Shown: positions 11,230 through 51,938 of the stretch, piece by piece
Layout of the letters: each line of letters starts with the position of its first letter
Position numbering within the stretch: position 1 is the first letter of the stretch
Made by a program: the position numbers and the translations under genes
Source: Psammoneis japonica
Taxonomy: Eukaryota
Assembly (NCBI GenBank): GCA_008632985.1
Contig: QPGO01000207.1
Coordinates: 62,001 to 124,566 of the forward strand
DNA length: 62,566 nucleotides
Direction: 5' to 3'
Notes under the pieces: model-generated
Databases searched by the model: none
What the model saw: only the letters and a program-made list of their open reading frames with translations
What the model was told of the DNA's origin: nothing

Positions 11230-11681
11230 ACCAACGGTATTCGTCCTCTCGACATCTTCGTTGAGGAGGCGATGCACTTCCGAGATGCTGTGACTTAAAA
11301 TTAGAGACAACCTTGAGACGCATACCTAACTTGCCTTCCCCTAACCGGTGTATGAGGGTAACGAGGACATCAGATAATGTGCACATTGCTGTCAACTTTG
11401 CTTTGATCATCTTTGAGATAAATGCTGAGGATTCCGCTTCGATACCGGTACTTAAGAGGACGATGTAGAAAAAAATAATGCACACACCTGGTCACGACAG
11501 AAAGAGCCAGAAGACACGACTTCGACAAATTACTCTCTACTAGCTAGAGAGTAGAGAGTAGGTAGAGAGGTCGGTATTGTTACAAAATTAAGAGATATTT
11601 CTCGACAATTTTCTGCCTCTTTTCAGGGCACCGCCTTCCGCAATGACCACAAATTCCGAGATATAATATGATACAATGCAT

Positions 11682-12778: not shown

Positions 12779-13179
12779 GGCGGAGATTAAAATGACGGCG
12801 TTGATAATCTACTTCTATGAAAGCTGCAACAGCACAAAGGGATAGTGTATGTGTGGATTTTGATGGCGAAAACGAAAAGAAAAGAACGCAGAAAAATGCG
12901 ATCGCAGTATGTTTGGTACACAATACCTCGTAGAAAAGACAAAATGCCGGCCGTATGCCTTCAAGATACTGTACGACTGCATCAGGATATGAGCTCAAAA
13001 CCGCAAAAACGACAAAACGACAAAACGACAACCGACAGCAATCGCATCAGAGACAGAGAAGATAGCGGGCGACCTTACCCTACCGGTAACCACGACAAGG
13101 CTTGTTGCCACGGCGTACGGGGACTTGGGAGGCTCTGTTAACTTGCTTAGTTTAGAAATTATTTTGTGCGACTGACAAA
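12779..13179. promoter_or_regulatory. Probable bidirectional promoter region between the divergent PTOX and bL21 genes
   Basis: Head-to-head start codons about 400 bp apart. Inferred from arrangement only. Confidence 0.4.
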
Positions 13180-14052
13180 ATGATTGGGACTGCGAGTGGA
13201 ACACGCGTAGCTCCGCGTGTGGTTGCTTCTCTTTTGCGGACACAAAACTTGAGAGAAGCAACAGTTGCGCAGTTCAGTGCATCGTTGCGGTCGTTTTCAA
13301 GTCAAGAGGCCATACCGAGTCGATTTGCTGTGGTAGATCACTCTGAAGAATATGAGAATGCAATGAATGGCCGACACGGACAACAGCTGTCTCTCACGCA
13401 GATTGACGGTATCGGGAAGGACGACCCGCCGTTTGATCCTTTTATTGAAGACGAATTGATGGAAGAAGAGCAAGGCGATGACGGTGAAAACGAGGAATCA
13501 ACCGATTCGGGTGCAGAGGGCGGCGAGACTAGTGGTGAGGAATCCTTGGACGTTGCAGATAAAGAGACAGTTGAGGACGACGAGGCGGAGGTTTCGCCAT
13601 TTACAAGTGACGGATCGCTTCGCTGGAAAAAGTCACAGCTTGCAGCGTTCCGAGCAGGTGCTCCGGCCGGTGGACTATTTGCAGTGGTGCAACTTGCAGG
13701 GTCACAGCACAAGGTTACTACCGACGATGTCATTGTTGCCAACAAGATCAAGCCCATTGATACTTTTGCAATTGGTTCCGTACATACACTTGAAGACGTG
13801 TTGTTGGTATCATCGTCTCATTTGACTTTGGTCGGGATGCCAGTGGTGGAGGGCGCCCAAGTTGATGTCATGGTGGAGGAAATTACTCAGGATGCAAAGC
13901 TTGTTGTATTTAAGAATCGGCGAAGGAAAAACTCTAAACGAAAGCATGGATTTCGAAGAGAAGTTACCGTGCTTCGTGTGTTGGATATTCGAATGCCCGA
14001 ATCGTACCAGGATCACACTCATAACAAACGAGCTAGTGTGCAAGAAAGCTGA
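13180..14052 (+). CDS. rpl21: Ribosomal protein bL21, probably mitochondrial, with an acidic N-terminal extension
   Basis: FAVVQLAGSQHKVTTDD and KLVVFKNRRRKNSKRKHGFRREVTVLRV; Arg/Ser/Ala-rich presequence; single exon. Confidence 0.88.
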   Translation: MIGTASGTRVAPRVVASLLRTQNLREATVAQFSASLRSFSSQEAIPSRFAVVDHSEEYENAMNGRHGQQLSLTQIDGIGKDDPPFDPFIEDELMEEEQGDDGENEESTDSGAEGGETSGEESLDVADKETVEDDEAEVSPFTSDGSLRWKKSQLAAFRAGAPAGGLFAVVQLAGSQHKVTTDDVIVANKIKPIDTFAIGSVHTLEDVLLVSSSHLTLVGMPVVEGAQVDVMVEEITQDAKLVVFKNRRRKNSKRKHGFRREVTVLRVLDIRMPESYQDHTHNKRASVQES

Positions 14053-15142
14053 GTTTGTGATTCGCGGTAGTTGAGCAGTGAACTGCCGCCATTCAAGTGC
14101 GGCATGATTTTGCATCTTAAAATCGAAGTTAAGCCCTACGCTTCAGCAATTCTTCGGTGTCTTGATGTTGTGTTTTGTAGTGGCACAATATATTTGGTCT
14201 GCACATCCGTGTTCCAGAGCAATCAGTTGGTAGCTTAGTGCTTCATCAATGCCACTCTCTCTTCAAAGTAAACAATCGCCAAGCATCACATCGCACCGCA
14301 GGGATTCCTTGGCACTTCAGTCGTCAATAAGCTGCGGTGTCAGCCTGTTGTGCACCTGTTGTACAGACGTGTTGGAGAGTCAAGGGTCAGCTCACCACAA
14401 AGCATGGATGCAATTATCTGCCGCTGGCTGACGTGATTCTCAAATGTGATGGTTTCATGGTCCTCCCCTCACCATGCCAGCCAGACACGGTGTTGCCAAA
14501 AAGTGAGCGAGCCACAGGAGATGGCCTTTCTGACATGCACGGTTTGCAATTCCCCATTGCTCACATCAACAGCTGACAATAATTTGTCTGGCTTGCACTG
14601 GCAACATGCCAAGAAACAGAAAGGGGGAGAGAGAGGCAAGGGCTGAAAAGGAAACACACTCTTTGTGGCCTTCTGTGCGTCGTGCACTCATCCTCTCGTT
14701 GTCCTCCTCATGGGTCTCTTGCTCCCTCCTCTGCGTGTCACCCTCTGCTCTCCCCTTGTTGGTGGGGTGAGAGCACCGTCATCATGCCAAGAGTGCTGGA
14801 GATGGGCTGCAGTGTGTGCACCACATTTTTGTGTGACACCCTTGCAGAGACACAAAAGAGCAGCACACGAAGCTGATGCTGCCATTTCTCCAGTGTGACA
14901 GTGTGAAGGCCTCACCCATTTTGTCATGCATTGGAAGCATTTCCTGTTCTCTCAAAAGAGGCACTTGCTTGCATTGTTTTCCTTTTGCTTGTGCACCAAG
15001 AATCAAATTGATTTTTTTTAAATTGATGCCAATTGGAAAAAGCCCGTTGCAAGATGTTTTTGATGCCAAAACTGGCATTGGGCCCAAAATTGAACCACCG
15101 CAAAGACTTTTGGAGCTGGCGTGCTGTTTTTGTGGTGCACTC

Positions 15143-15365
15143 CGAGTAAATCTAGCTGCCGAATGGGCTCAGCCACTCACAGTCTTAGTGCGATAACACG
15201 AACACAACCGACAAGATGCTTCTGGGCCTGTTGCAACTACAACGGATGCAACAAGTGAGACCGGTCGATGGTCATGGTCACTTTCCCACCGACACCACGT
15301 CACAGTCCCGCCACTTCAACTCATAGAGCGCACCAGACAGTCTCTGACACATTGGATTTCACTCG
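15143..15365 (-). repeat. 3' LTR of the Copia element (223 bp); PPT GAGGGGAC on the minus strand at 15373-15366
   Basis: Aligns to 21573-21794 with 17 substitutions and 1 indel (hand count). Confidence 0.92.
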
Positions 15366-18300
15366 GTCCCCTCGAAATGCACCTGACTCGTAAGGCACAA
15401 TTCGACCCAATGCTGCATCAGTGATCTAGCTCAAACATCTTGACTCATTGATCGACGTAAAACCCTTGCCAGGGAAAAGCCGCCAATCCTTTGTGCATGG
15501 TGCAAACCCTCACCAGGGAAGAAACTCACCACCGCTTCACGCATCCATCTTAACATGAACTTGTCCAACAGAAAATTTCGCCTGACAGACGACATGACCT
15601 TCGTGAATGGATTGCCAAGGTTTGTCTCTGTTCCCTCCTTTGCAATCCCAACAGTCCCCGCAGCAACAGCTTCGCGGTTGCGGTGACACGCAATGGAGTG
15701 ATGCTTCTTCTTGAGTGTAGACTCAGGAACAGAGCAATTCTTGTGGACGGCCTCATTGTCACAGAAGACATTTGTTGGCCCTTCGATCGGTGCTCCAAAC
15801 ATTCGAAGCTTGTGTCGCAGACTCTCTGCGAGCTCGATGGCATTCTTGAGTGGAACGATCTCTGCTTCAAATGTGCTGGCCTCCATGGCATTCTGATGCT
15901 TCGAGTGCCACACAATGGGTGCCCGGTTGATGAACATCAAGATGCCTGTGTGGCTGCGGTGATCGGCAACATTTCCGGCATGGTTGGCATCCACAAAACA
16001 ATGTGTCGACACTGCATCACCTCAAGCTGGCGGTGCATTTGTCGGAATGGCTTCTCTTGCATCTCGGCAGAAGTCGCGCCAGTCGCACTTCATGAATCGT
16101 GATTCATCGATCTTGGGATGAGCCGGATTGAATGCCACTTGGCGCTTTGGGACCTGTTTGAGGCACGCAAAGACATGCAACACCTGTTCCAGATGACCAA
16201 TGCGAGGGAGAGCGAGGTGAGCAGACATCAACGAAACCTCCAAATGGATGTCCACTCCACCGATTTCCACCGCCCAAACCAGCACACCAATCAGCTCTTG
16301 ATGATGGTGAAGTCCTTCAGCGTCCAACTCGCCAGCAGCATCTAACTCGGGTTTGCATCCACTGCTCAATGGGGTTGTCGCCTTGCCAGGCAGACATTTC
16401 CCCTCCTTGCCAAGCCTGTCCTCTACATTTTGGACAGCGGACTTGCAGCACTTCTCCGCAGACATTGCCCAACAGGCAGTCCCATCGGCTAAAGTCATCT
16501 TGGAAAGCGCAGCACCGAGAAAGGAATCCGGCTCGGCTGCCTCATCACCCTTGAGCTTGAACTTGGACCTGATGCCATCCATCGTCTTCATGGGTTCGTG
16601 GCCAATCGACAGCACGTCGTCCACGTAAACTAGAACGCACTCGCAGCACTCGAATCCGTCGGGTTTCACCGCAGGTCTCATCCATGCATCCGGATCAGCC
16701 TTGCTCGGTTTGCACCCTAGATCATAAAGCGTCTCCGCTGGAAAAGCCCTGAACGCTGCTCCGGAGCTCTTCAATCCGTGTGGGGCCCTGACCACAATCA
16801 TGATGCAACCTTCATCTTCGCCAAACTCGGACCCTGCTCTGGCCCAAATCTTCTCCCTGCAAGGGGCAGTGAGGTGGGCGTTCTGGATGTCACACGCAGC
16901 AAAGACTTGCAAGTCATTGAGCGCAGCAAGCGTCAGCGCAATTCTTGCCGAATCCCGAGAGACGACAGAGGAGCAAGTGATGTGTGCGGGGGTTTCAGTG
17001 GTGTGGCCTCCAGCCACCATGCGAGCTTTGCGGCGGAAGTTTTCTCCCAACTTGACATCAAAAATCATGTGGCACTTCACTTCCTGGAAAACAGGCACCA
17101 TGTCCTTAAGCTCCCCTTCACACTTGTCAAAAGCAACCCGCACGTTCTTCATCTCCATACAAATGGCGTCCCACCACAGTGTGTTGCCATTTGTGCAATC
17201 GATCTGGATCGCCTCCTTGACACTCTTCGGGATCCGCATGCCAAATTTGTGTGTTCGTAGCCAGCACTTCGACTTGACCTTCGCAATGGAATGCTTGCGG
17301 GTTTTCATGACATGAGGAACCCACCAAGCAAACGCTGCCTCACCCGAGATCTTGCGCTGAATGGCGAACTCGGCAACTTGGACTGGGAAGCTCTCCTTCG
17401 CAATCTTCAAGTCGATCCAAGTCGTATTTCCATCCTTCCATTGGAACAAAAGTTCCCATCCTTTGGCAGTCTTGCGCCTCTTCCGAACGCCTCGCTCGGT
17501 CTCAAAGAATTCGGATTCAGGAACGTCCCCGTTGGTGCGGCAATCAACGATCTCATCGAATAAGACGTGCCGGTTTCCGTCCTCGTCGATCTGAGCAAAC
17601 ATGTTCATGGCAATGGAGTTAGCAGAGAGCACAGCATGGTGCCCATCAGGGCACTCTACCTCATACATCCTTGTGTCAAGGATGGGATTGTCATTGGCTG
17701 TTCCTGTCGGAACACCACTGGCATCTCTCAACCTCTTCGTGACACGAGCAAACTCAGGACCATTGTCATCTCGTGGAAGCGCAACCTCCATGTTAATGCA
17801 TCCCCAGTCCGCCGCCTCCGGTGAGGCTTCCTCGTCTTTCTTGTCGTCGTCGTCATTTGCTGCCTCCTCTGAGGATGTGACACGATCACACTCATCGAGG
17901 AATTCATCGTCGTATCCAAGGCAGTCTTTCCAGTCTTCGGGACTGATCTTACGATCCTCGTCATCGGGGAAATCTTGCTCCTTCAACCGTCGCTTGATCT
18001 CCTCGTCAAAACTGTCGAACTCTGCCTTTTTCTCTTGAGTAGCGGCTTCCAAATTGGTGACTCGTTGGACGGAAGTTCTCGAAATAACACTGCCTGTCTG
18101 TGTCAGAACATAATGCGACATGAGACTCCCTGTTCTGTGAGACACACCAAGCCACCTACCAAGCTTCTCGTCCCCTGGACCAGCATTCTCCCTGTGCCAG
18201 ACCCAATCGTAAAATCCAAAGTTGAGGTGCTCCGAGATGTCCACGGTCTCTCCGAGAACGTTCTCCAGTGGCACTCCTGCATCCAAATGATGTGCTCAAA

Positions 18301-21300
18301 GGAACGTGCGAGACATGGTCTCACATGTCCACGTAAATCCGCAGTCCCACAGTCGCCGCGGCACTTGCTTCTTGACCATGACACGGAACCACTTACGTCT
18401 GACCTCGCGTGCAACTCCTTCTGCAGGATTCTGGTTGTGTCGATCAGGTTCGATGACATGACAATCTATGCCCTCCTTGCGCACGGTCTTCATGAACTCC
18501 GTGCCAGGTTTTGTTTGCTCCTTAGATCCGTCCAACAGGAGTTTCTCTGGCACGCCAAATTCCTGGCAAAACGTCTTGAGAGCCTCGCCAGCCTTACTCT
18601 TCTTGTCCATGGGATAGATTGCAGCGAAGTGTTGCTTGTTTGTAAAGATCTGGGCATGTCGATTGCCCTCCAGCGAAACCACCTTGCCGTCTGCCGTGTC
18701 GGTTGCCCATTCACCCCGTAACCTGGGCTTTGTGAACATCCGATCGGCCCGACAGCGCCGACCCACAGGCATCAACGCTGACCTGATGAGCTTTTGTGCA
18801 GTCTTCTTGAGCGTGCTTGCTGCTTGCTTGAGTCCCATGCACCATCGTTCACTCAAGTCAGCAGCCGATGCGTCACTGTGTCTCTCCTTAGACACGAACG
18901 TCTTCGGGAGTGCTGAGTCTTCAGGTCCTTCGCCGATTGTTTCCGTGGCGGAGATCTGGACTGTTGGCTCCATTTCCACATTAACGGCAGCTGTGAGCCT
19001 TGATTGGACTTGATCAACTCCATGAATGAATCGCTCATCGCAACAGTCCCCGGATTGAGGGTTGCTGTGGGCAGGATCAGCTTTGAACTTGTGTGTTAGA
19101 TTGGTGTGGATCGTCGCAATTGACCGAACTAGCTCCATTTCCTCCTCCGCAGATCGTCGAGTTCCAACAGATTTGAACTTGACGGTCTGTGGATCCCAAG
19201 GTTGTTGGGAGGTCATCTGGATCTTGGGGCATTCGTGCAATTCCTGCTCTGCAGGAGTGCGAGTTGCCGCAACGACATTGGTCCCCACAGCTTCAAGCGG
19301 CATCATGAAAGATCCATCCTCAGCAAGGACACACAGTGGCGAATCGGAGCAGGGGTTGTCCTGAACCTTAACACCAAAGTGCCGCAGCTGGTTTGGGTTA
19401 ACCAGCGAGTGCTCCATGGACTCCGGCATCCATGAGCCCTCGTGGAAGACCAGAACAAAAGTTGCTCCCGATGTCGGTGAAGTCCACGCTGTGGCTGCCA
19501 AGACAATTGGGACACTCTTGATGGACTCGCATCCCTCGTTAAAAGGCGATGCGTCACATTCTCGTCCAGAACAACCCAAGAGGGTAAAGTTTTGACCAAA
19601 AACAGTGGTGTCAGCATGCGAATCCATTTCAAGACGCCCATGCTGTACCTTGCTCATGTCACGGATGTGGGTGATTCGTGTGGTGTCAGACCGCGTTGCC
19701 GAGACACGTCTCGTCGAGGTAACAACCTCACAGATGCGTTTGACACAGGCACGTGGATGCTGCTCCTTTGATCGATGCGGCTGTCCCCCGCCCCATTGCA
19801 GCAACCACAACAAGAAGTTTGTGATGCAACCAAGCAGGGTCCAGCTTGGCAGTCATTTCTGCTTTCCTCGGCGCTTTTCGCTGCGACCACCGAATGCGTC
19901 TCCGGCATTGTCTCCGTCTCTGCCGCCAGCCCTTGATTCATCATCGCCAGAATCGGCACTGACATTGGTGTTCAGGGCAGAGATTTTGCAGTTCGCTTCT
20001 TTAAGCTGCGACGACAGCTTCCGATTCTTCTTCTTGAGCGACTTGACGGATGCAGCACGGCGTTTGGTTGGTTTGGGTTGTTTGGCGACACCTGGATGCA
20101 CGCGCTCGTTGACAACCTTCTGTTTGTCCTCCTTGCTCAACTGGTGCCAGTTTTTGTGGCATCCAGTGTCAATGGATCCATCCTCATTTGTAAATGGCAC
20201 CACCCTCTCTTCCTCCTCCAGAGGCAACTGCGGCAATCGCACGACGATGCGCAATCGTCTCTGGAAGGGTGGCGACTTTGGCGGCAAGATGATTGGCCGC
20301 CGTGGTGAACGTGATGCCTCCTCCAAACTCATTCTGCGCCTTCAAGGTTTCAACTGCTGCTTGTAGTGATTGGTGCTGCGTCTTCTCAAAAAGGATCCGC
20401 AACTTCTGGGCCTCCGTTTTCGGTTCGTCGTTCTCGTCAAAAATGTTGAACATTTCTTGGAGCTTGTTTGCAAACGACTCAAACGGCACAGCGCGTTCAC
20501 TCTTGTAATGAAGGGCATTCTCCATGCGCTCGGCTTCAGAGACACGGCGGGAGGTGTTGCCTTCTCCCTGGCAATGGTCGCACAACGCCCTAAAGTCAAC
20601 TCGTCCGTTCTGTTCATTCTTGTGGTCCTTCAACCATTGCTCACTGGGTGTGCCCGTGGTTAGGGACTCGATGAGTAGATGAACCGTACGAGCGTCAGCC
20701 TCGAAAGCTGGGCCTTGGAGGGGTGCACATGCAATGCACTTCTGGACGAAAGTGTTGTGGCCTTGAGGTTCGGGTGCATCGTTTTGACGAATGCAACACA
20801 CTGACGGTACGCCAGAAACTCCCAGCACAATGCCAAGCATGTTCGTCAAACCGGTGCTCCACTTGACCCAATCCTTTTCGCTCTCTAACATTCCGGGCGA
20901 CGCCTCTTTACCAAGAGAGTCAGCAGCAGCCTTGGTCTGGGAGCGGATCTCGGCGCGACTAAGTGCCGTCTGGAGAGCAGCACGGAAAGTGGCTTGATCA
21001 AGCCCATCCAGAGTGGGGGTTCTCGCTCACGCGACCAAAGTCCTGAACCCAATGTACAAGAGCTTTGAGTCGACGACTGCGGGCCAAACCAAAATGAATG
21101 CGCCCTTCAGCAACCGTCCTCCTGGCGTACAAAGACGCAAGAGAATCGACATCCTCTTCCTTGAGGTCTTCTAAATCGTCAAAAGACGCAAAGTCCGCCA
21201 TGAGCGGGACTCGTTGAGCTGGATCAACAAATCCGATCCATTCGAGCGCTGTCTCGACAGGATCCGGAGGAGCAGCCGCCATGGTGGCACCTGTGCCAGT

Positions 21301-21572
21301 GGGAAAACAGAGTTATGTGAGAAATCATAAATTCAAAAGGATGTCTCAGTTTGTGTTGACGATGACACACAGCCATTAGAAGCATGGAGACTGGCCATGT
21401 CTCCTCACTGCTCGTGCATTCACTGATGCCAGGCGATGACAATCATCGTGCACCCTTCCATCGACCGGCATTCGTCGCCACAACCCTGCCACAATGGCAC
21501 GACCGTCTCTTTGCAGTTGTTCAACGCTTTTCGTCAAACTAAACTTGAGTCAACGACTTGGCTCTGATGAAG

Positions 21573-21794
21573 CGAGTAAATCTAGCTGCCGAACAGGCTC
21601 AGCCACTCACAGTCTTAGTGCGACAACGCGAATGCAACCGACAAGATGCTTCCAGGCCTGTTGCAACTACAACGGATGCAACAAGTGAGACCGATCGATG
21701 GTCATGGTACTTTCCCACCGACACCATGTCACAGTCCCACCACTTCAACTTGTAGAGCGCACTAGACAGTCTCTGATGCATCGGATTTCACTCG
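21573..21794 (-). repeat. 5' LTR of the Copia element (222 bp), followed by PBS-like CTTCATCAGAGCCA (21572-21559)
   Basis: Direct repeat of 15143-15365. The adjacent ATCAGAGCCA matches the tRNA-iMet PBS consensus TGGTATCAGAGCCA over 10 nt. Confidence 0.9.
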
Positions 21795-22827
21795 ACTCCC
21801 AGCAATGAGCAGCAACATGATGTGGCACTCATCTGTTGCATGACTGCATTCTTGTTTTCTGTGGGTGCATTCTTGAAGAAAGTGGCAATGCCTGGGCACA
21901 ATCCATGTTTTCCAGAGCAGACAAGTTCACTTGGTTGTCACAACTTGTCATCCAAAAACAAATCTTCATCATTGTTGCAAATGGCAAACTTCCAAGCAAA
22001 ATCATCAACCAGCTTGAAGAAGTCAGAATGACCCCTGAACTCATTCCCTCCAATGCTTTAACCTGCAGCATCATTGTTGGTGGTGTCGGCAGTGACATGG
22101 CCACATTCCTGTTCATCATCATGGCAACACTTTTCTGCCACTGCTTTGCTGCAATTCCAAGTCCAGCATTGTCAAATGGATCACATTCAGAGCTGTCATC
22201 TGAGTCAGAAGATTCCCATGGTCAACTGTCATTTTGCAAAGCAGGAGCTCCACTTGGTGGCACTGCTGCTGTGTGGCAGTGCTTGTTGAGCTGAGGCTGT
22301 GTGTGTGGTTGAGCCAACAGAGTTGGCAATTTGCAATGTGCCAGCTTTGCATTGAGCACATTTCAGCCACTGTTGGTGGCAGAGTTCTTGTTGCTGGCAT
22401 TGTGGCTGCCAGCTTGGTGGCAACTGGCATGCTTTGGTGTGGCCAATTTTGGCACTGTTGTGACTGGGGTGGATCCTTGTGCATCCTGGGTGTTGGTTGC
22501 CATGATGCAATGATGCTGCTTCCTTCATCAAATTGTTTTGTGTTTGTTTGTCATTTGGCAGCATGTGGCAAGACTGCACATCCTTGTCTGTCATCAACAG
22601 CAAAGATGACAGGCTGTCACACATGTTGATTGTGAACTTCCAGTCATTTTTCTTGTGCAGGCAAGAACTGACTGTGGCACCCTTGATCTGCGCTGTGCCA
22701 AAGTGCTCATTGGAGTGTGAGACTCTTGGCGCTCATGCTTCACAAAGAAATTGGTGGAAACAATGAGCTTTTTCTTGGCACGAGAAAACACATTTCTTGA
22801 CTTTTTTGCCAGTGGCAGCTGCACAAC

Positions 22828-37922: not shown

Positions 37923-39083
37923 CAAAGGTACCGCATTGAGGATGACCCAAAAGAATTGTACACAGCTAGAGTGCTTAGCACTCATACAACTCCTGAGAAT
38001 CTGTTTATAATATTTGTATATGATGCCGCGAGGGCGGTTTGGGGGGTCGGCAGTCCGTGCCATAGAGACTTTTTGTTGAGCCGTTCCCCTGTGTGATCTT
38101 GCCATGCCAAATGAAAATATATCGGCTTTTAAACGACCTAGAATCCATAATAGAATTGTGTTACGCTATTAGCATGTTGTTTCATTTCTACCGGGGACCG
38201 TGTGAATAAAGCAGAACTTTTCGGTTGACGATGCGCATTTTGTTTTGGTTCCTCGTTAAAATCGATAAGGAAGCGGCTCTAACACGAAACTACATACAAA
38301 CAAGCTTAGGGCCCTCTACTCTAGAGAGAGTAGGGCCCCACTCTACTCTAGAGTAGAGCTATGTTAAAGTAGAGTAGAGGAGTCTCTAGGGGCTAGGGGC
38401 CCTGCCGTAGCCCTACTTGCTTGTCGTTTCCCTTCGCTTCGAGTCTCCTGGCCGGCCACGTCACCGGATTATGACATCATCATGACGTCTACACGACTGT
38501 CGCCAGGTAGGTACAGTACATAGACTCTCTGTGCGGCTAGCGCCGCCCGTCTCGTTTGTTCTCCTGCAGCTCTCTAGTTAACTGGTGAGGTGCAGTTGTG
38601 GTTCTAAGTTGATGGACTGGAATGGCTTTACCAGCGGATGCGCAAGCCTCATTCCCAAAACCCAAGCTGGAACGGCAGGGCCAGAGGGCGGGAGAGGTGG
38701 GAGTGTTGAAAAACTGTCTTGCGGCTGTTGCTCTTGGCTGCTCTTCGGAAGAATGAGAGGAGCGAGTGGAAGAGCAAATGGCCGTTGCTCTGGTCTTGCG
38801 AAAGCGCGTTCAAATTGTCAAATGGCTAAAAATGACCCAACAGACAAAAACGGGCAACAACGGTCAGGCGTGGGTCATTTCGCTTCGTCGAACGTCGTGA
38901 GGTTGGCGGCCAGCGCCGCCCGTCTCGTTTGTTCTCCTGCAGCTCTCTGGTCAACTGGTGAGGTGCAGTTGTGGTTCTAAGTTGATGGACTGGAATGGCT
39001 TTGCTAGCGGATGTGCAAGCCTCATTCCCAAAACCCAAGCTGGGGCGGCAGGGCCTTCCAGCGCCACCCACAGTGCCACGCAC

Positions 39084-40322
39084 TCAAGGGCATGCACCAT
39101 TGGGAGGGTGGGTGGGTGAGGCTGGAGGGCTGTGGGAGATCCAGTCCTGGGGATCTTGAGGATTCATGGGGACGTCGGCATGCAGGTGGAGGACGAAGTC
39201 ACCACCAGCAAGCATGTCACGAGCAAAGTTGCGCATGACGGGTTCGGCTTGCAGGTGAAGGTGGCGCAACATTTCGTCAGATCGCCAACGGCCCAAGAGC
39301 CGGATGAGGCTGGCATTGACATTGGCACAGAGAAGCGCCATGGCGCCAGCGGCATGAAGACAGTGAGCAGTGACATCTTGGGTGTTGAATCCGAGATTTG
39401 CCGGACCACAAGCAATTGCAGCAGTGCGCAGTGCGCCAGTGACATCGGCAGGTGACACACGTCGCCAGGTGCCATTTTGGAAACAGACGCCCAGAGGGGT
39501 GTCGGGGAGCACGCCATGCATCCAAAGATGCTGGACGTGACGGACGAGTGCCTTGGTTGGGCACAGGTTGGGGTGCCCCGAAAGGCCGAGTCCCAAAACT
39601 TCTCCGCAGATGCCATTCTTTTGTGTTGTGAAGGTCAGAGTGGCGAATGTGGCAGCATCAAGCTGAGCATCGGGGGCTTGGAAGGTGTCGAGACAGACGT
39701 TTCCAGATGCCAGGCGGACATTGGCAAGACGGAATGGTGCAGTGTCGGATGGGGCAGCGGCATGTTCGCCAGGGCGCAGCAAATGAAAGAAGGCAATGGC
39801 AATCATGTCGGCAATGGCTTTGGTGCCGGGATCATTGCTGTTGGCTGCAGCATGCACAATCCAGGTGAGGACTGCGACGGGGACCGGTTTGACGTGGTCG
39901 GGCGGTGGATCCTCTTTCTTGTAGAAACGGACTTGGAGGGTGAGGCGGAAATCCATGCCGCCTTGGGGTGTGTGGCGAGGGTCCGAGGACCCCATGGCAG
40001 TGAACGTTTGGCCAACCGACCGCACGGCATCCTCAGCAGTTCGTCCACGGACGGGATTGCCGTGCGGGGCAATGGCTCCTGTTCGGCATCGGTGGAGGAA
40101 GACTTGCAAGAAGACAACGGGGTCGTCGACATCTTGGAGCAAAGGGTCGAGGGCCACAGTGGTGCAGAACTCTCGCCATTTGTCCCAATGGGTGTTGGTG
40201 GCGGAGGCGCGCGAATCGGTGACACCGTGGGTGACGGCATGCTGAGCAGCGTTGAGGTCACGAAGGAATTCAGCTCGGGTGGTGGTGTCCAAAGGCGCCA
40301 GGAGAGTTGCTGTGGATGACAA
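39084..40322 (-). pseudogene. Tyrosine recombinase of the Ngaro-type element, catalytic Tyr replaced by His
   Basis: LLRPGEH, FTTQKNG, LCPTKAL, AHCLHAAGA and LGRWRSDEMLRHLH, where family consensus is GRW.SD...Y. Confidence 0.88.
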
Positions 40323-41870
40323 CGATCAAAATGGGTCAAAAATTGTTTGTCAGTGAGAGACTGGAGGCGAGATGCGTCATCAGCGGCAGAGTTGAGGCAT
40401 CCGGGCCAGCAATCATGGAGTCCAAGATGGCGGCGATGGCTTTGATGGAAAGCTTGGTGCTGGAGAAGCTTGGAGGCGGGCTTGATCATTGCAGCCGATC
40501 CTTTGCATTGCCAACACATTGTGCCTGAATTGTCAGTGCGGGACAGGACAGTGTGCTCACGGATGTCGAAACACTCGGCAGCGGCGTGAGATTGCATGAC
40601 GCTGCCTGCGAGTTCGAGGTTGGTGTCAGTGATGGGACCTCTGGGGTTGGTGTGCGTGGCCAGGCGGGATGTGACGCACTTCGGAAAGGGAAGTCGCCAC
40701 ACCACGGGGCCTGCATCACGTTGAGTGCAGTGGCGGCCGTCACTGAAGCAGAGGGTGGTGGCGCGTGGGACGGCAGTGTTGGTGGGGAGAAGCACGCCGC
40801 CGGCGCCGTGGCCTGCTGCATCATGGCAGCCTGTGAGAGTTGGTTGCAACGGAACCAATTCTTGAATGCGAACGGGTCACGAGTCGAGGGCAGCTTCGAG
40901 CGCGCGAAAGTCGTCCAGTGCCAAGTGGGCATTTTGAGCAAGGCAGACTCGAGAGTCTGGTGTGGTGTGTCGGAGGTTCTCCTGAAGTTCTGAGTGCAAA
41001 CCGCACGAACCTGGGATGGCAATGCCAAGGGAGCGCAGTTCGCCTGGAAGCTTCTGACACTCGGCAGCGGTGGCACGCTTTCTGGCACGAGGAAAGTCCT
41101 TGCACAGCGTGCCGACGTGGCGTGAGACGGATGGTCATTGATTGTGTGTCAATGAGCCAGCCCAGCACTTCTTTCTGTGTGGACCAGGTGGCGTCACCCT
41201 TGTGGAGCTTCTTGACAGAGGCTGGTTCCTTGCGGGTGGCTGGATCCTGGGAATCGAGTGGACGGAAGATGTCGTCTAAGGCATGCAGAATGACTCAATG
41301 TGCATTCCGGCGGGACCGTCGTGAGCCTTGCGAGGCTCCAATGAAGTCGTCCACATAAATTTCGACGCATTGGAGACGACGACGGCGGTGTCGCCTGAGA
41401 TGTGGGTCGTGTGCCTGTGGCACTGGCACAGCTTGCGTGGTGCCGTTGCCTGGTGGTGGTTGGTGTGTCGGCGGCCTGCTGTTGAGCAATCGTTCCAGTG
41501 GGTGTGCTGGAGCCTTCACGTTGCGCATGAGGTCCAGGTTGGCCATGTTCGCTGCAGTTTCGGTGGCAGTGCAGAACACAGGCGGCGAGTTGGCCCATGC
41601 CATGGGCAGACGTGCAGGAAAGGCAACTGGGGGTGGTTCGCCTGGCAAGCGTGGGAAAACAACTCCCAGAATGAGTGCTTGGTCCGGGGCAAGTTGCACG
41701 CAACAGTGGCCGTCTGCAAGATCGATCTTCATGAGGCAGATCTTGCCTTTCCGCGGGTTGGCCAACAGGATGCGACGCAACAATCTGTCCAGGGCTCGAC
41801 CAAATTGCATGGCTTCCATTGTGGCGTTCGGTTGTGTCGAAGGATTGACGCCATGGAACGTGTCACTTGA
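39803..41870 (-). pseudogene. RT/RNase H region of the Ngaro-type element (interrupted; overlaps the YR ORF)
   Basis: GVN..EAMQFGRAL, KIDLADG, YVDDF, LGWLIDT, GCHDAAGHGAGG and NSAADDASR, spread over several frames. Confidence 0.85.
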
Positions 41871-42059
41871 AATGTGCTCACCCAATTTATCATTGTAAAT
41901 GGTGGCAGCCACATCCTGTCCACGTGCAGCAGGGCGGGTGCGCTGCCGTTTCGAACTCTCCACAGTCGGGGGTTGTGGATGCGCCGGCCGCTTGGCCGAT
42001 GCGAGAATGGGCTCTTGGCGCCAAGTCCCCGAACTTGGGCCATTGCCGAAGACCCATTC

Positions 42060-44300
42060 GGTCTTCCAATGTTCCTCGCCCCAAGTGAGGAAGCGCTGCT
42101 GCTCCTCCTCGGTGTGGTCATTGTGATGGTCACAGCTTGAGCCGCAGTTGGAGTTGCACTGACCCTCAATGTGGCAGGGGTTGCAATGGACGTGCCCTTG
42201 ATCGTCCTTTGGGAGCTCGACGTTGTCTCGGGCACATCGATTTTTGACGTCCCATGACCGCACATTGGGACGATCACGCAACCTCGTGAAGCGCGAGTCG
42301 CAGGCCGGGTTGCAAACGATGCTGTTGGTGCCCGCTCGCACGGCGTCGCCCGACCCTGTGACAGGAGCGGGGGGTGCTCCGGACCTGGGAGCAGGCGTGA
42401 CAGAGCTCGTGGCCTGCACCGAAGGTGGGAGGCTGAAGCGCCAAAACATGGCACCCTTGGCCGCTTCGTGCACAATGTTGTGTGCCGTGAAAGGCACTTC
42501 CTGGTGCGTGGTGGCTTGAGATAGAAACCAGTGGCACACTTCTACCTGGGCATGGCGTTGTAGATCCACAGGGAGCATCGGATGCAAGGTGTGCTGGCAC
42601 ATGAGCTCGTTGGCATGCTGATCCATGTTGGTGCGCTGAAGGGTGAGCCACTGCACGACGGGGTGCTGGTCTCCAAGGGTGGCCGAGAGGATGAGACGGC
42701 AACCGTCGTGGGATTGCTGTGCTGCTTGCACAGTGGTCGCGATGAGTGCCTTGTCAGGCGCTTCCAGGAGCTGTGTGTCTTGGAGGGACGGAACACCGGC
42801 ACCTCCGTGTGTCTGTGCGTACATTGCATTGCGATGCGCGATCTGTTTGGCTGCTTGTGGAGCAGTGAGCCCGAACAAAAATGGGTTGATGCCTTGTGTC
42901 GGCTCCTCCTGATTGTGGCCGGTGAAATCGAGTTGTGCCAGCTTGGTGACAAGACTGATGGTCGCTGGGAGGTCGAAATGCACTTGCAAGGCTTGACGCT
43001 GCTTGTCAATGGAATTTTGAATGACAGCGAGGCATCCCGTCTTTGGTGCTGCGGCAAGTGCTGGCCAGAAAGGCGGGAGTGCGGCCTCGTTGTAAACCTG
43101 GCACCAGCGCAATAACTCAGTGACACCAAAGACGCCCCAAAACTCCGCGGGCATCTTTCCTCGGCTGGCAGCATTGCGCCTGGCCTCTTCGTCCAACCGC
43201 TGTTGCCGTTGCTCGGTGGTGAGGCCTTCGATGGCGGCAACAACGGGCTGAAAGTGCTGCGCTGGTACTTGAGTGCCGGCGTTGCGACCCGGCAGATCTC
43301 GCTCGACCTTGTGATCAAAAAAGTTCATCAGAGCATCGTTGGGCGGCCGTGTCATGGCAGGCCAAGGCTGAGCCACGGCGGATTGGAGCTGTGCATTTGC
43401 TGTGGCACAGCATGCGACTCTTAAAAAGTCTAGAAGCGGCGCCAAGGCCGAGACTTTATTTGCTGCTGCAGCTGCCCCGTGGAGCCTTGTGTAAGCGGCT
43501 TTCGGGCTAAGCGGTGTAGGCAAGAACAGGCGAACGAACTCGAAAGGGACGTACATGGCGTTGCGCGTCCTCACTTCTTCGGCGTCTTGTGCATTGGCCT
43601 GCACATGAGGATGCAAGCCATTCGGAGCAGCCGTGATGTGCGTGCGCAGGGCGTTGTGCGTGGGCACCCACGTGCCTTGGTCAGCTAAAGCAAACGCGTC
43701 GTCTGCAAACTCGACGAGGGTGAACTGTCCCCGTGTCAAATCGCCAGCGATGGCGAAGGTGGCGTTGTCCCAAGGCTGTGCGGGGCCCACCACGGTGGTG
43801 GGGCACGCAGACACGCGGTGCAAAAGCTGCACTTGCCCCTCGTCCACCGCGCCTTGCGCCCGACAATGAATGACAATCACCATTGGAAGGTCGTGGCTTG
43901 AGGCGGCTGCCACTCTGTCGTGCAAAGCCCCGGGATTGTGCCGTGAGGCACCCTGAACCGGTGCCGCAAAGTCCAACATGGCTTCGGTGTACTCCCCACG
44001 ATGCGGATCCTTGGAATCCATCGCGCAGCAGTCTTGGCAAGTCCGAAGCACGGGTGGAGCCAGAGGTGTGACCGGAACTCTGGCTGGTTGCAGCGGTTGT
44101 GGTTGACCCCCTCCAGCAAAATGAACACCTGGGCCGGCTGGTGGCACCGGTGCTTGCAGCGGCTGCGCTGGTGCTTGAAATGGTTGCTGAGCCACTGCAT
44201 TCACAGCCGCCCCATTCTGAACTCCTTGTGCCGCAGCTGCTCCTTGTGCTGCTGCGGCTCCTTGCGCCGCTGCGGCTCCTGGTGGTTGATTCATGACACG
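42060..44300 (-). pseudogene. Gag-like ORF of the Ngaro-type element with N-terminal AAAAQG repeats and a C-terminal Cys/His finger
   Basis: Long Ala/Pro/Gln-rich frame; CNPCHIEGQCNSNCGSSCDH near 42180-42120; 18-bp repeats at ~44224-44283. Confidence 0.7.
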
Positions 44301-45559
44301 AGAAAGAAAAAGCTCTTCCTGCGAACAATGAACAACAATGGCGGACGGTGTCCTGCGCTGAATCGACAGCATTGAAAAACTGTCTTACGGCTGTTGCTCT
44401 TGGTTGCTCTTTGGAAGAATGAGAGGAGCAAGTGGAAGAGCAAATGGCCGTTGCTCTGGTCTTGCGAAAGCGCGTTCAAATTGTCAAACGGCCAAAAATG
44501 ACCCAACAGTCAAAAACGGGCAATGATGGTCAGGCGTGGGTCATTTCGCTTCGTCGAACGTCGCGAGGTTGGCACTTTAGAGAGAGAGGCGAAGGCGCCT
44601 GCTCGACTCACAACACTGCTCTCTACAGCAGCCACTGCTGGTGGCAGCAGCAGTGGCTGCCACTCCAGCTAGCAGCAGTGGCTGCCACTCTAGCCAGCAG
44701 CAGTGGCAGCAGCTCTCTCTCTATTGGCAGCTGCTCTCTCTGCTGCAGAGAGTGCCAGCAGAGTGGGGCCATGCTGTGCCAGACTGGGGCCCTCTCTGTG
44801 CTCTGCTCTCTGCTGCCGCTCTGGACTGGCAGGAGCAGAGAGGAGCACTGTGGCAGTGGTGCCCTCCAGCTCCACAAGCAAAAAAGGTCTGTCAGTTAAA
44901 AATGGCTGCTCTGCAGAAGCGGGTTTCAATGTGATTTTTTGGTTTGGTTTCTCTTTTGCTTCAGTGCATTCTTGTTTTTGACTGACTTCCTGTGTTGACC
45001 CCACACTTTCAAGTTGTGCTGGTTGATGCTCCATTGTGTTGATCTCGGGTGCTGTCATTGCGAGCACCACAAGGTGGAACATTTTTGCCACAACTGGCGG
45101 ACCAGTTTCTTGTGAAACTCCACACATGTGGATGTGCCAGAGGGAAAGAAACAGAGCTTTGTCTTGGCATGACCACCGTGATGCATGGGCATGGTGTGTT
45201 CAATCATTTCATTGGGTTGTGCTTTCTCTCAGCATTTGGCATGCTGCATGAACAAGGCATGGCCACATTTGCAGCTCTTGTTGACTGTGTTGTGCTGCCA
45301 GTCTCAACACTTCATGTGTCAAGTGTTAGAGCAATGCACCTGAATTTGGAGTGCACAGACACTCAGCTGTGTGTTGAGTTTGTTTGTGACATCAATCTTG
45401 CAAAGATTTGTCATTTTCCAACAAAGGTTTTTTTTGCTGTGGCAATGTGTCAGATGCGCTGGGTGATGGCTTGACAATGAGCTGATCATTTCACACTGTG
45501 GCTTCATCAGACCATCAGCGTTCTGATTGCATCTCTGGTGTGACCATTGCACAAAGCTA

Positions 45560-49109: not shown

Positions 49110-51938
49110 TCAATGCCTCTGATGTGTCGAGATCTGTGTCAACGACTTTTCATTGGTGCCTCCCAAGGCTCTCAACAGGCATGCCACCACATCCACCGTA
49201 TCATGCCACATGCACTGGATGACATCTTTTGGCCCCTCGAGGACTCCCAAGACCCCGTCACCCACAAGGAGCCAGTTTCTGTCAAGAAGCTCTGCCAGGG
49301 TGATGCCACTTGGTCCATGCAGAAAAAAGTCCTGGGGTGGATCATCCATGCCAACTCCATGACCATCCACCTCACGCCCCGTGGGCATGAATGGCTTTGC
49401 ACCACACTGCACCAGCATTTTCCTTGCACCTGCAAATGCGCCACCGCCACAGACTGCCACAAGCTCTTGGGTGAGCTGTGCTTGCTCGGCCTTGCCATCC
49501 CAGGCTGCCACATGGTCTCCACTCAGCTTCAAGAGAACCTCCAACACACTGCCCTGGACTCCAGAGTCTGCATCACACCCAATTCCCACTCCACCTCAAA
49601 CAATTTTTGTGACCTCAAACCAACCCTGGAGTCCCAACCTGTTCGCACTCAGGAGCTGGTTCTGTTGCAACCCACCATCACTGGCTGCCATGATGCTGCC
49701 GGCCATGGTGCTGGAGGCATGCTCCTCCCAACTGCTGCCACTGTCCTGCGAGCTGCCACCCTGCGCTTTAGCAACAACCAACACCACACTCAGTGCATTC
49801 AGGACCCGTTGTCTTGTGCATGCTTTTCCCCAAATGTGTGACCTCCCAGCTTGCCACCTGCACTGACCCACGTGGCCCCATTGCCAACACTGATTTGGAA
49901 CTCGCTGGGAGCGTCATCCAATCCTGCACCACCACCCACTGTTTTGACATTTGTGAGCGCACTAATCTCTTGCATGCCAACAACTCAGGCACCATGCGCT
50001 GGCAATGCAAAGGCTCCTCCACCACCATCAAACCAGCTTCCAAGCTTCTTCAACATCAAGCCTTCCACCAACGTTGCCATCACCACCTTGGACAGCATGA
50101 TTGTTGGCCTGGACACCTCAACTCTGCCACTGATGATGCCTCACACCTTCAGTCCCTTGCCAACTGAGATTTCCTTTGTCACTTTAATCGTTTTTACCAG
50201 CAGAAACTCTCCTGGCACCTCTGGATGCCACCATCTGGGCTGAGTTCATTCGTGACCTCAATGCTGCTCAACACGCCATTGCCCATGGTGTTGCTGATTC
50301 CAGAGCCTCCATCACCAATGCCCATTGGGACAAATGGTGCAAGTTTAGCACCTCTTTGGCCATTGACCCATCACTCCAAGATGTCAACAACCCTGTTGTC
50401 TTCCTGCAAGTCTTCCTCCACCAACACCAAGCTGGCATCCTTGCCCTTGCAATCCCATTAGAGGACGAACCACTGAGGATGCCATGTGGTTGGTTGGCCA
50501 GACGTTTGCTGCCACAGGGTCTGTGGATCTGCGGCACACACCCCAAGGCGGCATGGATTTCCAACTTGCCAGGCAAGTCCATCACTGCAAGAAAGAGGAT
50601 CCACCGCCAGACCGCATCAAACTGGTCCCCGTCACCATCCTCACCTGGATCATGCATGCTGCCACCCACAGCACTGACCCAGCAGGCACTCAAGTGGTTG
50701 CTGATGTGACAGCCATTGCCTTCTTTTACCTCCTGCGTCCCAGTGAATGCACCGTGACCCCCTCCGACACCACGTTCCGCCTTGCCGACGCCCACCTGGC
50801 ATCTGGAGAGGAGCCCATCTAGACACCCTCCAAGACCCCAATGCTCAGCTTGACACTGCCACCTTTGCCACTCTTGCTTTCACTGCACAAAAGAATGGCA
50901 TCCGTGGAGAAGTTTTGGGACTCGGCCTCTTGGGACACCCCAATTTGTGCCCTGCCAAAGCACTCGTCTGGTGCGTCCGACATCTTTGATCTCACAAAGC
51001 GCTCCCTGACACCCCCCTTGCTGTCCATTTTCACAATGATGCCTGGCACTGGGTGTCACCAGCTGACATCACAAGCGCTCTGCACACAGCCATCATCACA
51101 TGTGGTCCGGCAAATCTCAGCTTTAACACCCGAGATGTCACTGCTCGGTGCCTTCGCGCAGTGGGCGCCATGGCACTCCTCTGCACCAAGGTTGACACCA
51201 ACCTCATTTGGCTCTTGGGCCATTGGCAATCCAACAAAATGTTGTGCTGCTTGCATCTGCAAGCCAAACCAATTGTGCACAGTTTTGCTTGCAACATGCT
51301 GGCCGGAAGCCACTTTGTCCTCCATCCCAACGCCGACGTCCCCATGAATGTCCCACATCCACAGGGCTGGATCACCCCAGCCCCCCAGCCTCACCCACCC
51401 ACCCAGTGGTGCATGCCTTCAAGTGCACTGCACTGTGGTGGCACTGGAAGGCCCTGCTGTTCCAGCTTGGGTTTGGGAATGAGGCTTGTGCATCCACCAG
51501 CAGCAAAGCCATTCCAGTCCATCAACAACTTGGAGTCCACCTGCGCACTCACTCACTGCAGAGGCGCAGGAGAACCAACAACATGGGCAGCACAAGCTGC
51601 CAACCTTGGGAGGTTCAACAAGATGAAATGACCCATTCCTGGCCATTGGGTCATTTGTCCCACAGTCGTTTAAAAATTTGAACACGTGTTCGCAAGACTG
51701 GAGCAACGGCCGCTCGCTCTTCATCACCCCCTCTTCTCATTCTTCTGAAGAGCAACCAGCAAGAGCAAGAGCCGCAAGTGGACAGTTCAACGCTCCCACC
51801 TCTCCCACCCTCTTGCGTTTGGGAATGAGGTTTGCGCATCCGCTGGTAAAGCCATTCCAGTCCATCAACTTGGAGTCCACCTGCACTCACTCACTGCAGA
51901 GGAGCAGGAGAACCAACGAGACGGGCGGCGCGAGGCGC
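49110..51938 (+). mobile_element. Second, older, 5'-truncated copy of a related Ngaro-type YR retrotransposon (RT C-terminus, RNase H, YR, B1-A2-B2)
   Basis: Homologous to the reverse complement of 41370-38533: KEPVSVKKL..GDATWS, GCHDAAGHGAGG, KKEDPPPDR, YLLRPSEC and ARCLRAVGAMALL. Split repeats at ~51450-51600 (B1), ~51600-51790 (A2) and ~51817-51938 (B2). Confidence 0.88.

Follow-up and report, generated by a model that had tools for sequence, protein, structure and literature searches.

According to the available text of a preprint on the chlorarachniophyte Bigelowiella natans, 230 of the 231 mutations that arose in two integrated viral regions during mutation accumulation were A-to-G or T-to-C changes, and these invariably lay at TpA (Mettrop et al., bioRxiv 10.64898/2026.01.13.699255). 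The same text reports that reverse-transcriptase and DDE domains are overrepresented among coding sequences poor in TpA, and that fungal RIP turns CpA into TpA by C-to-T change (10.64898/2026.01.13.699255). In diatoms, as far as the accessible part of the source describes, transposons are methylated, and loss of DNMT5a de-represses young elements (PMC9998398). A full-text literature search, with subscription journals and bioRxiv supplements outside its scope, returned no publication describing a loss of TpA from the transposons of diatoms.

In this study, we analysed a stretch of 62,566 nucleotides (the window) and, within it, a decayed retrotransposon at 15143-21794. Compared with the portion of the Bigelowiella report available, the changes at this locus are likewise A-to-G or T-to-C at TpA, turning it into TpG or CpA on both strands; foreign or mobile DNA is struck and host genes are spared, and the depletion of TpA is accompanied by an enrichment of CpA and TpG. 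The two cases also differ. The host here would be a diatom-like stramenopile rather than a chlorarachniophyte, and the targets are LTR and DIRS-like retrotransposons rather than viral regions. The observed/expected ratio (o/e) of TA falls to 0.03-0.2, far deeper than the 0.45 given for the Bigelowiella viral region, and the mutation rate, which was measured in Bigelowiella and there exceeds the genomic background by orders of magnitude, is only inferred here, with the 16 YpR changes against one change in about 103 non-YpR positions of the LTR pair as an indirect hint. Instead of exclusive change at TpA, we found CpG decaying in the same domains, together with a preference for the 3′ neighbour; CpG, LTRs, retrotransposons and diatoms do not appear in the available Bigelowiella text.

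Fungal RIP resembles the present case in acting on DNA, on a specific dinucleotide and on both strands, and in ruining integrated mobile DNA while sparing genes. RIP is set off by duplicated sequence ahead of meiosis, and its direction is the opposite one: it raises TpA through C-to-T at CpA, whereas here TpA is destroyed through TA to CA or TG, and no change into tyrosine was found. Editing by APOBEC or ADAR before integration shares the deaminase-type transitions clustered in retroelements (PMC4866542); however, such editing is one-stranded and would enter both LTRs, whereas here the LTRs differ at 17 sites and both strands are affected. Deamination of methylated CpG accounts for four LTR sites, for the decay of arginine codons and for CG-poor relics, but it leaves TpA untouched.

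The element and its two LTRs

A single Ty1/copia-like LTR retrotransposon, inserted on the minus strand and belonging to a family with tens of copies, occupies the region, which presumably forms part of the nuclear genome of a diatom-like alga (Table 1). Its terminal repeats are true LTRs, because they flank gag and pol frames, ACTC(C) stands on both sides, and the contig of another copy diverges exactly at the left end. The affiliation with Ty1/copia follows from the two LTRs, the target-site duplication, and an integrase-before-reverse-transcriptase order with a copia-type reverse transcriptase, as read through homologues. Four of these homologues (1270-1320 aa) align colinearly over 15554-19627 with 55-57% identity (tblastn), and PF07727 is present in the pol homologues; a Pfam scan of the element's own frames returned no family, only a sub-threshold EF-hand. 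Self-BLAST of the window yielded no third copy of the LTR.

Table 1. Features of the copia-like element and of the DIRS-like elements in the window (positions in the window).
Feature	Position	Strand	Remarks
Target-site duplication, left	15139..15142	.	ACTC, or 5 bp ACTCC if 15143 is counted; read from sequence
LTR, 223 bp, element's 3′ LTR	15143..15365	-	Repeat and alignment; another copy's contig diverges exactly at 15143
Polypurine-tract-like stretch adjoining 3′ LTR	15366..15380	-	GAGGGGAC on minus strand, read from sequence; likeness to a polypurine tract is our assumption
pol frame (protease, integrase, reverse transcriptase, RNase H order)	15431..20341	-	ORFs; tblastn
gag-like frames, frameshifted	20184..21312 (20184-21026 and 20998-21312)	-	Assigned from position only; no family match
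Primer-binding-site-like stretch after 5′ LTR	21555..21572	-	Contains ATCAGAGCC on minus strand, read from sequence; we take it to resemble copia tRNA-iMet primer-binding sites
LTR, 222 bp, element's 5′ LTR	21573..21794	-	Repeat and alignment
Target-site duplication, right	21795..21798	.	ACTC, then C; read from sequence
Second, DIRS-like retroelement	38533..44573	-	TA nearly gone, CG kept
Tyrosine-recombinase frame of DIRS-like element	39084-40325	-	
Reverse-transcriptase frame of DIRS-like element	41295-44384	-	
Older inverted partial DIRS-like copy	49122..51938	+	73-76% identical; with outgroup proteins polarises doublets

A repeat search followed by global alignment of the two LTRs gave 17 mismatches and one single-base indel, at 15279, in agreement with the by-hand count of the preliminary description. 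As stated there, all 17 mismatches are transitions and 16 fall within the TA/CA/TG/CG set, that is, at YpR steps; the sole exception is 15264 (G/A). The alignment likewise recovers the five sites at which a TG of one LTR faces a CA of its partner (15164-5/21594-5, 15203-4/21633-4, 15223-4/21653-4, 15322-3/21751-2 and 15348-9/21777-8) and the two TA versus CA sites (15194 T/21624 C and 15334 C/21763 T). At four further sites, one LTR reads CG and the other TG or CA (15198, 15298, 15310 and 15353), and 5 TA and 11 CG sites are common to both LTRs.

This pattern departs from chance in several respects. YpR steps cover 53.8% of LTR positions, and the probability that at least 16 of 17 mismatches fall there is 4e-4. 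The probability of 17 transitions among 17 is 1e-3 for an assumed transition share of 2/3 and 7e-5 for the share in a local control pair of gene-type DNA (53137-54194; 28 of 49), which has 28 transitions, 21 transversions and zero CA/TG doublets. At least five adjacent pairs are expected among 17 random sites with a probability of 0.004. A uniform decay model with a TA or CG ancestor was ruled out by the excess of doublets: extrapolation from intact and half-changed sites predicts 0.10 (TA) and 0.18 (CG) doublets, and five were seen (P about 1e-5). Hot and cold TA sites are therefore needed.

Since the differences separate two LTRs of one insertion with matching target-site duplications, they arose after integration, as had been proposed. 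The claim that editing of the retro-RNA is not responsible stands as well: such editing would be one-stranded and copied into both LTRs, whereas these LTRs differ and carry changes on both strands. The warning that LTR divergence would overestimate the age of the insertion is justified, because the raw divergence of 7.7% comprises 16 YpR changes and only one change in about 103 non-YpR positions (about 1%).

Direction, strand and regional extent of the changes

The direction of change was read by comparing pol with those 49 of the 120 homologues listed that reach 1000 aa or more; 118 of 641 conserved columns have changed. In the 29 conserved Tyr columns, the element now has Y in 4, C in 13, H in 7, F in 4 and L in 1, so that 20 of the 29 have become Cys or His (TAY to TGY or CAY), and no conserved column of pol has changed into Tyr. 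Trp is kept in 20 of 20 columns, His in 13 of 14 and Cys in 6 of 7. Further changes also remove TA, namely V to A (GTA to GCA, three times), L to P (CTA to CCA, twice), I to T (ATA to ACA) and I to M (ATA to ATG, twice). The 13 sense (TAY to TGY) versus 7 antisense (TAY to CAY) changes at Tyr codons confirm that both strands are hit. Conserved Arg columns retain 27 CGN codons, and 5 of 32 have decayed (CAY 3, TGT 1, TGA 1). In this element, TA has thus decayed by about 83% versus about 16% for CG, which is lost about ten times more slowly. The host gene ClpB, taken as a control, keeps Tyr in 8 of 8 conserved columns. Some of the 20 Tyr changes may be older than this insertion, should it stem from a damaged copy that was mobilised in trans.

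In addition, 2420 contigs of the element family were aligned, and 958 of 1164 variable places are transitions. Family states were read at 40 of the 1164 places, a single one of which, 15334, lies inside an LTR. Here the family has T in 792.4 of 819.9 depth units from 6 contigs; this LTR reads CA and the other (21763) TA, and the site polarises as TA to CA. The family majority as sole outgroup was rejected, as the majority may be one clade. Contigs matched from runs X2 and X3 numbered 1 and 0.

Doublets with a known ancestor are provided by the second, DIRS-like retroelement and its older inverted copy. The catalytic Tyr column of the recombinase, which is Y in 98% of 56 homologues, is represented by CAC in one copy and by TGC in its counterpart. 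Among 31 doublets in the recombinase frame, 6 are TA-derived, 6 are CG-derived and 19 are assigned to neither; both kinds of doublet thus occur in this pair. The proposal that a TG/CA site records hits on opposite strands of an ancestral TA or CG is demonstrated for the DIRS-like pair, and for the five LTR doublets a mostly TA origin is inferred. Moreover, the outcome that the preliminary description set against its own reading, with all doublets from CG and the TA/CA sites from CA to TA, is not what we observed: 15334 changed from TA to CA, and TA-derived doublets occur in the window.

The damage is regional. In transposon DNA, the TA o/e is 0.03-0.2 and that of CA/TG 1.4-2.1, as against a TA o/e of 0.46-0.68 in gene DNA (regional values); over the whole window, the values are 0.24 for TA, 1.54 for CA and 1.55 for TG. 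This contrast, together with the concentration of 16 of the 17 LTR changes at YpR steps, bears out the claimed dinucleotide specificity. In 500-bp bins, gene DNA contains 12-39 TA and 17-44 CG, young elements 0-10 TA and 13-47 CG, and old relics 0-7 TA and 0-18 CG (CG o/e 0.04-0.3), and the borders between domains are sharp, within 500 bp. Gene DNA is normal in its dinucleotide content, young transposons are poor in TA with CG kept, and old relics are poor in both. The decay of CpG may be a separate, methylation-driven process.

Sequence context appears to matter for TA. Relative to gene DNA, surviving TA in depleted DNA stands at 0 in ATAT, 0.13 in ATAC, 0.36 in ATAG, 2.9 in TTAA and 3.1 in CTAA; CG contexts are nearly flat (0.6-1.7). 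At 18 TA versus CA/TG sites, a 3′ pyrimidine follows the unchanged A in 0 of 18 and the changed A in 5 of 18. These two comparisons, both with small numbers, suggest the existence of hot and cold TA sites. One het site was changed despite its cold T-A-G context, and four conserved Tyr codons of pol survive in the supposedly hot one. ADAR prefers a 3′ G, the reverse of the pattern here.

A probable TpA-directed process and its alternatives

We consider it probable that a post-integration, transposon-confined change of TpA to CpA or TpG, together with a slower decay of CpG, explains this element. A copia-like element would have integrated with identical LTRs, and its chromosomal DNA would subsequently have been mutated. 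TpA would become CpA or TpG by A-to-G change on either strand of the palindromic TA, favouring an A before a pyrimidine; alongside, CpG would more slowly become TpG or CpA, most simply through deamination of methylated cytosine, and both processes would push every YpR step towards CA/TG. Where a hot TA site was struck on opposite strands in the two LTRs, a TG/CA doublet would result. Most of the five LTR doublets presumably derive from TA, because TA has decayed so much further than CG in this element (about 83% versus about 16%). As the agent we propose a TadA/ADAT-like deaminase that would act on adenine in DNA and be guided by the chromatin state that marks mobile elements.

The same direction of change could have another chemistry, in which thymine is modified at the TpA steps of silenced DNA, for instance to 5-hydroxymethyluracil, and then mispairs or is mis-repaired to C. 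We regard this as unlikely, although the sequence itself holds no counter-argument: TA is palindromic, T-to-C on one strand equals A-to-G on the other, and T-A-Y and R-T-A are equivalent statements of the context preference. What we count against the modified base is that 5-hydroxymethyluracil pairs well with A, whereas hypoxanthine forms pairs with C and is a direct mutagen. The Bigelowiella authors, in the available text, favour an ADAT2-like deaminase (10.64898/2026.01.13.699255).

It is rather improbable that the doublets began as CA or TG in both LTRs and that one copy passed through a short-lived intermediate (CA to TA to TG, or CA to CG to TG), with all YpR transitions raised. Such a course would explain the excess of doublets relative to half-changed sites, and it agrees with three doublets that, among the places listed, set this copy apart from a near-unanimous family (15931-2, 19433-4 and 21057-8). 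Among the 37 in-element rows listed, moreover, TA here faces CA or TG in the family in 7, and CG here faces TG or CA in 4. These 7 and 4 rows, however, fit changes on the stem of a majority clade equally well, and a family majority forming a single clade would give them without any reverse change. For one of the three doublets, 19433-4, a TA ancestor can be deduced: this copy has TCA, the family has TTG, and Leu in 16 of 19 homologues implies TTA. In addition, no column has changed into Tyr, and the 5 TA and 11 CG sites shared by the LTRs argue against very short-lived intermediates.

Decay of methylated CpG alone, with all five TG/CA sites formerly CG and the TA/CA sites produced by C-to-T changes creating TA, is very improbable. 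CpG decay does occur, as indicated by the four LTR sites reading CG versus TG or CA, the change of Arg to His, Cys or stop at 5 of 32 CGN codons, 10 private CG to TG/CA changes of this copy among the listed family rows, the six CG-derived doublets of the older DIRS-like pair, and the low CG o/e of the relics. However, it cannot remove TA, and 20 of 29 Tyr columns have become Cys or His with none changing into Tyr. Young elements are without TA yet have CG at the level of gene DNA, a CG decay of about 0.15 predicts about 0.2 CG-derived LTR doublets against the five observed, and the family reads TA at 15334. Least credible of all is that modified bases in transposon DNA were miscalled or misassembled, so that true TA or CG sites appear as CA/TG. 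The sequencing technology is unrecorded and the window has one run of N (35932-35968), but k-mer contigs of run X1, which may be the source sample, show the same transition-dominated family variation (494 contigs match the window at 99% or more), an accumulated history is suggested by the three classes of decay and by the changes that break frames, and the available Bigelowiella text derives the same signature from Illumina data (10.64898/2026.01.13.699255).

Wider implications

If the TpA-directed process is confirmed, this host would bring the number of lineages with a TpA-directed mutator of mobile DNA to two and be the first stramenopile among them, and a single-species curiosity would become a candidate widespread defence. 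The preference for T-A-Y, the loss of TA before CG and the sharp domain borders supply testable features. The host is provisionally placed among the diatoms by one gene, ClpB, which matches best to diatoms, with 76-81% identity to named ones; its best match among 5.8 billion proteins reaches only 81% identity, and the species therefore seems absent from those protein collections. We can imagine, with more doubt than conviction, a dedicated mutator common to diatoms and chlorarachniophytes and old within SAR or wider. This DNA adenine deaminase would recognise the silenced state of mobile DNA and turn T-A-Y into T-G-Y, whichever strand carries it. Transposons and integrated viruses would thereby lose TpA, all TAA and TAG stops and the majority of their Tyr codons, in a mirror image of fungal RIP.

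In such genomes, LTR-divergence dates would be inflated, and profile searches can miss transposon proteins stripped of their tyrosines. In TA-free DNA, where TGA is the only stop left, gene callers would predict long but spurious reading frames. In-frame TGA stops cut pol at 16022-4, 18296-8 and 19853-5. A genetic code with TGA as a sense codon was rejected, because the stop at 16022-4 lies opposite Arg and the family has CGA there, and because TAA and TAG are simply absent from TA-poor DNA.

Differences between the LTRs of element A

The preliminary description claimed that the mutations separating the two LTRs of element A, a Ty1/copia-like retrotransposon on the minus strand, are post-insertional, double-stranded and dinucleotide-specific. 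The repeat pair itself is real, and both a repeat search of the window and a global alignment recover it (223 vs 222 bases, with one 1-base indel at 15279). The observation is confirmed, since all 17 mismatches are transitions and 16 of them fall within the steps TA, CA, TG and CG (YpR steps). The global alignment divides the mismatches into five TG/CA doublets (adjacent pairs reading TG in one copy and CA in the other), two TA/CA sites, four sites with CG against TG or CA, and one G/A difference beyond any YpR step. Chance is an unlikely explanation of this pattern, because YpR steps hold 53.8% of LTR positions and the probability of at least 16 of 17 mismatches there is 4e-4, that of 17 transitions is 1e-3 if the transition share is 2/3, and that of 17 random sites giving five or more adjacent pairs is 0.004.

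ACTC(C) stands on either side of the insertion, with a target duplication of 4 or 5 bp according to edge placement, and a contig of another family copy departs from the window precisely at 15143. The LTRs begin with CG and finish with CG, compared with the usual TG...CA. Copies of the family are numerous: in run X1, a read set that samples other family copies, 2420 contigs match element A at 80% likeness or more, and the summed word depth is about 1000-4200 within the element vs 81 and 226 in the flanks. The RT part has 1154 relatives (best, 65% identity); PF07727 is present in every RT relative among the matches listed, and one of these bears the name of the diatom Fragilaria crotonensis. Four full-length relatives are colinear with element A over 15554-19627 at 55-57% identity. 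A Pfam scan of the element A frames found no family; for frame P0001 (16025-18295, minus) it gave no RVT_2, yet the 65%-identical relatives carry PF07727 in precomputed tables.

Direction of change in coding frames

The pol frame, with X at stops, was aligned to those 49 of the 120 homologues listed that reach 1000 aa; 641 columns have at least 70% conservation, and element A differs at 118 of them. Tyrosine accounts for the most frequent replacements, with 13 changes to Cys (TAY to TGY) and 7 to His (TAY to CAY), both of which amount to TpA turning into TpG or CpA on one strand or the other. Tyrosine is retained at only 4 of 29 conserved columns, and no change into Tyr was found among the conserved pol columns. 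The same rule covers three Val-to-Ala changes (now GCA), two Leu-to-Pro (CCA), two Ile-to-Met (ATG) and Ile-to-Thr (ACA). Trp (20/20), His (13/14) and Cys (6/7) are retained. Conserved Arg columns still hold 27 CGN codons, and 5 such codons have turned to CAY, TGT or TGA. Based on the Tyr-column and CGN-codon counts, about 83% of Tyr-codon TA steps vs about 16% of CGN steps have decayed; CpG decay is present in element A but weaker than TpA decay. In a host ClpB exon, used as a control, conserved Tyr (8/8) and Arg (25/26) are retained. Some of the Tyr loss may predate insertion. Among the variable places listed, seven have TA in element A vs CA/TG in the family and four have CG vs TG/CA; such places could reflect either reversal or change on the stem, and the family majority is perhaps no true outgroup.

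The DIRS-like element has a reverse-transcriptase frame with YVDD; its tyrosine-recombinase frame has 3575 relatives, 56 of which (330-450 aa, out of 150 listed) were aligned. Two Tyr columns are conserved in the recombinase, and one of them is the catalytic one (98% Y); both have CAY in the 38533-44573 copy and TGC in the inverted, older one, so the catalytic column is His in one and Cys in the other, and both doublets point to a TA ancestor. At one Arg column, CAC vs TGC forms a doublet with a CG ancestor. The 31 doublets over this frame comprise 6 TA-derived, 6 CG-derived and 19 with no ancestor assigned. Element A has a doublet at 19433-4, with TCA in the window and TTG in the family; 16 of 19 homologues have Leu, and a TTA ancestor is therefore implied. 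For the LTRs, a model with decay of 0.83 (TA) and 0.16 (CG), weighted by the gene-DNA TA:CG ratio of 660 to 902, gives a chance of a visible doublet of about 0.34 per TA site and 0.013 per CG site. Each of the five LTR doublets would then very probably be TA-derived (odds of about 20 to 1, from decay rates rather than an outgroup). Site 15334, the sole LTR site among the variable places listed, has C in the window, whereas T makes up 792.4 of the 819.9 depth units of the family (run X1), a direction concordant with TA ancestry.

A uniform decay model predicts 0.28 doublets from intact and half-changed sites for either ancestor, and five are observed (P about 1e-5). Sequence context likely accounts for this excess. 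Relative to gene DNA, TA surviving in depleted DNA is absent in ATAT and stands at 0.13 in ATAC, 0.36 in ATAG, 2.9 in TTAA and 3.1 in CTAA, while CG contexts are nearly flat (0.6-1.7). At the TA vs CA/TG sites of transposon pairs (n = 18), a 3′ pyrimidine follows the unchanged A in 0/18 and the changed A in 5/18. From these surviving contexts and half-changed neighbours, although numbers are small, T-A-Y is likely hot and T-A-R cold. The five TA steps common to both LTRs lie in GTAA, CTAG, TTAG, CTAC and RTAG; four of the five doublets, with TA restored, would read ATAG, ATAC, TTAT and ATAC. As a counter-example, one half-changed LTR site is altered in a cold context.

Regional distribution and host

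Dinucleotide content was scanned in 3-kb and 500-bp bins across the window, and the borders between classes are sharp, within one bin. Young elements are TA-poor with CG kept and old relics are poor in both; therefore, TA loss precedes CG loss. Element A was inserted into an already exhausted relic, and ordinary genes adjoin it. TA-poor DNA has long open frames in every one of the six frames, since neither TAA nor TAG can occur without a TA, and gene callers would over-predict there.

Coordinates of features in the window
Feature	Position	Strand	Details
Gene DNA	~5.5-14.5, 36.5-39, 52-57.5 kb		per 500 bp, TA 12-39, CG 17-44; CA+TG 0.44-0.74 of YpR
Young elements	element A; DIRS-like 39-44.5 kb; 1.5-5.5 kb		per 500 bp, TA 0-10, CG 13-47 (near gene-DNA level)
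Old relics	14.5-15, 22-36.5, 45-51.5, 57.5-62.6 kb		per 500 bp, TA 0-7, CG 0-18; CA or TG at 83-100% of YpR steps
Element A direct repeats	15143-15278/21573-21708; 15280-15365/21709-21794		LTR pair
LTR termini	15143-15147, 15361-15365		CGAGT...ACTCG, 5-bp inverted repeat; second LTR alike
pol stop-to-stop frames	15431-16021, 16022-18295, 18296-19852, 19853-20341	minus	single frame interrupted by TGA codons
gag-like frames	upstream of pol frame	minus	from frame analysis
In-frame stops checked (frames 15431-21312)	16022-4, 18296-8, 19853-5, 20342-4, 21027-9	minus	all TGA
DIRS-like element	38533-44573	minus	recombinase frame 39084-40325
Older inverted partial copy	49122-51938	plus	
Old LTR-like direct repeats	22828-23074/28350-28598		81% identity, 5.5 kb apart; neither CG nor TA shared
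Probable further recent mobile element	1501-5500		young class; per 500 bp, TA 0-6, CG 15-33; 249-aa frame at 4841-5590
Assembly gap	35932-35968		run of 37 N, within old relic
Tandem pair	53137-53633/53643-54194		in gene-type DNA
Host gene island	6413-14052, 52042-52627		ClpB; putative, read off translations: Skp1-like, plastid-terminal-oxidase-like, L21-like, cyclophilin-like

The tandem duplication, a local control, has an ordinary mutation spectrum: 28 of its differences are transitions and 21 are transversions, and CA/TG doublets are absent. The old LTR-like repeats contain 10 such doublets, and the 2.9-kb pair 38533-41370/51938-49122 contains 65.

The host is diatom-like, not Bigelowiella, because the best named relatives of one ClpB exon are all diatoms (Odontella, Coscinodiscus, Cylindrotheca, Nitzschia, Pseudo-nitzschia, Epithemia and Attheya; 76-81% identity); a search of the protein collection with this exon found no close relative. 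The ClpB signal peptide terminates in AYAFAP, the motif of red-lineage complex plastids.

Mechanism and comparison with known systems

In this window, together with one LTR site from reads, the process acts after integration, on both strands and at TpA, is limited to mobile DNA, and is faster than CpG decay in the same domains. The interpretation in the preliminary description is supported. Against a sequencing artefact, run X1 may not be independent proof, being possibly the source sample of the window. We suggest that a TadA/ADAT-like enzyme would deaminate adenine in DNA. The T-A-Y preference resembles the U-A-C of the tRNA anticodon loop and is the reverse of that of ADAR, which prefers a 3′ G. 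A chemical alternative is thymine modification, which sequence cannot separate from adenine deamination. The CpG component would most simply be methylcytosine deamination; one report describes diatom transposons as methylated and young elements as de-repressed on DNMT5a loss (PMC9998398).

We consider this case a further instance of the very recently described TpA hypermutation. According to the text of the 2026 Bigelowiella natans preprint (10.64898/2026.01.13.699255), a mutation-accumulation experiment gave 231 mutations in two integrated viral regions; 230 of them were A-to-G or T-to-C, every one at TpA, and the rate was about 6e-7 per site per generation. Its authors also count 124 TpA-poor, CpA+TpG-rich clusters in the genome and propose an ADAT2-like candidate; the terms diatom, CpG, LTR and retrotransposon are absent from that text. 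Our search of the full-text literature found no report of TpA hypermutation in diatoms. The signature is alike in the two cases, and here it occurs in a second, distant lineage. The present case differs in that its targets are retrotransposons, the process is near completion, a neighbour preference is visible, and a slower CpG component accompanies TpA loss. Compared with fungal RIP, the purpose is similar and the direction of change is opposite.
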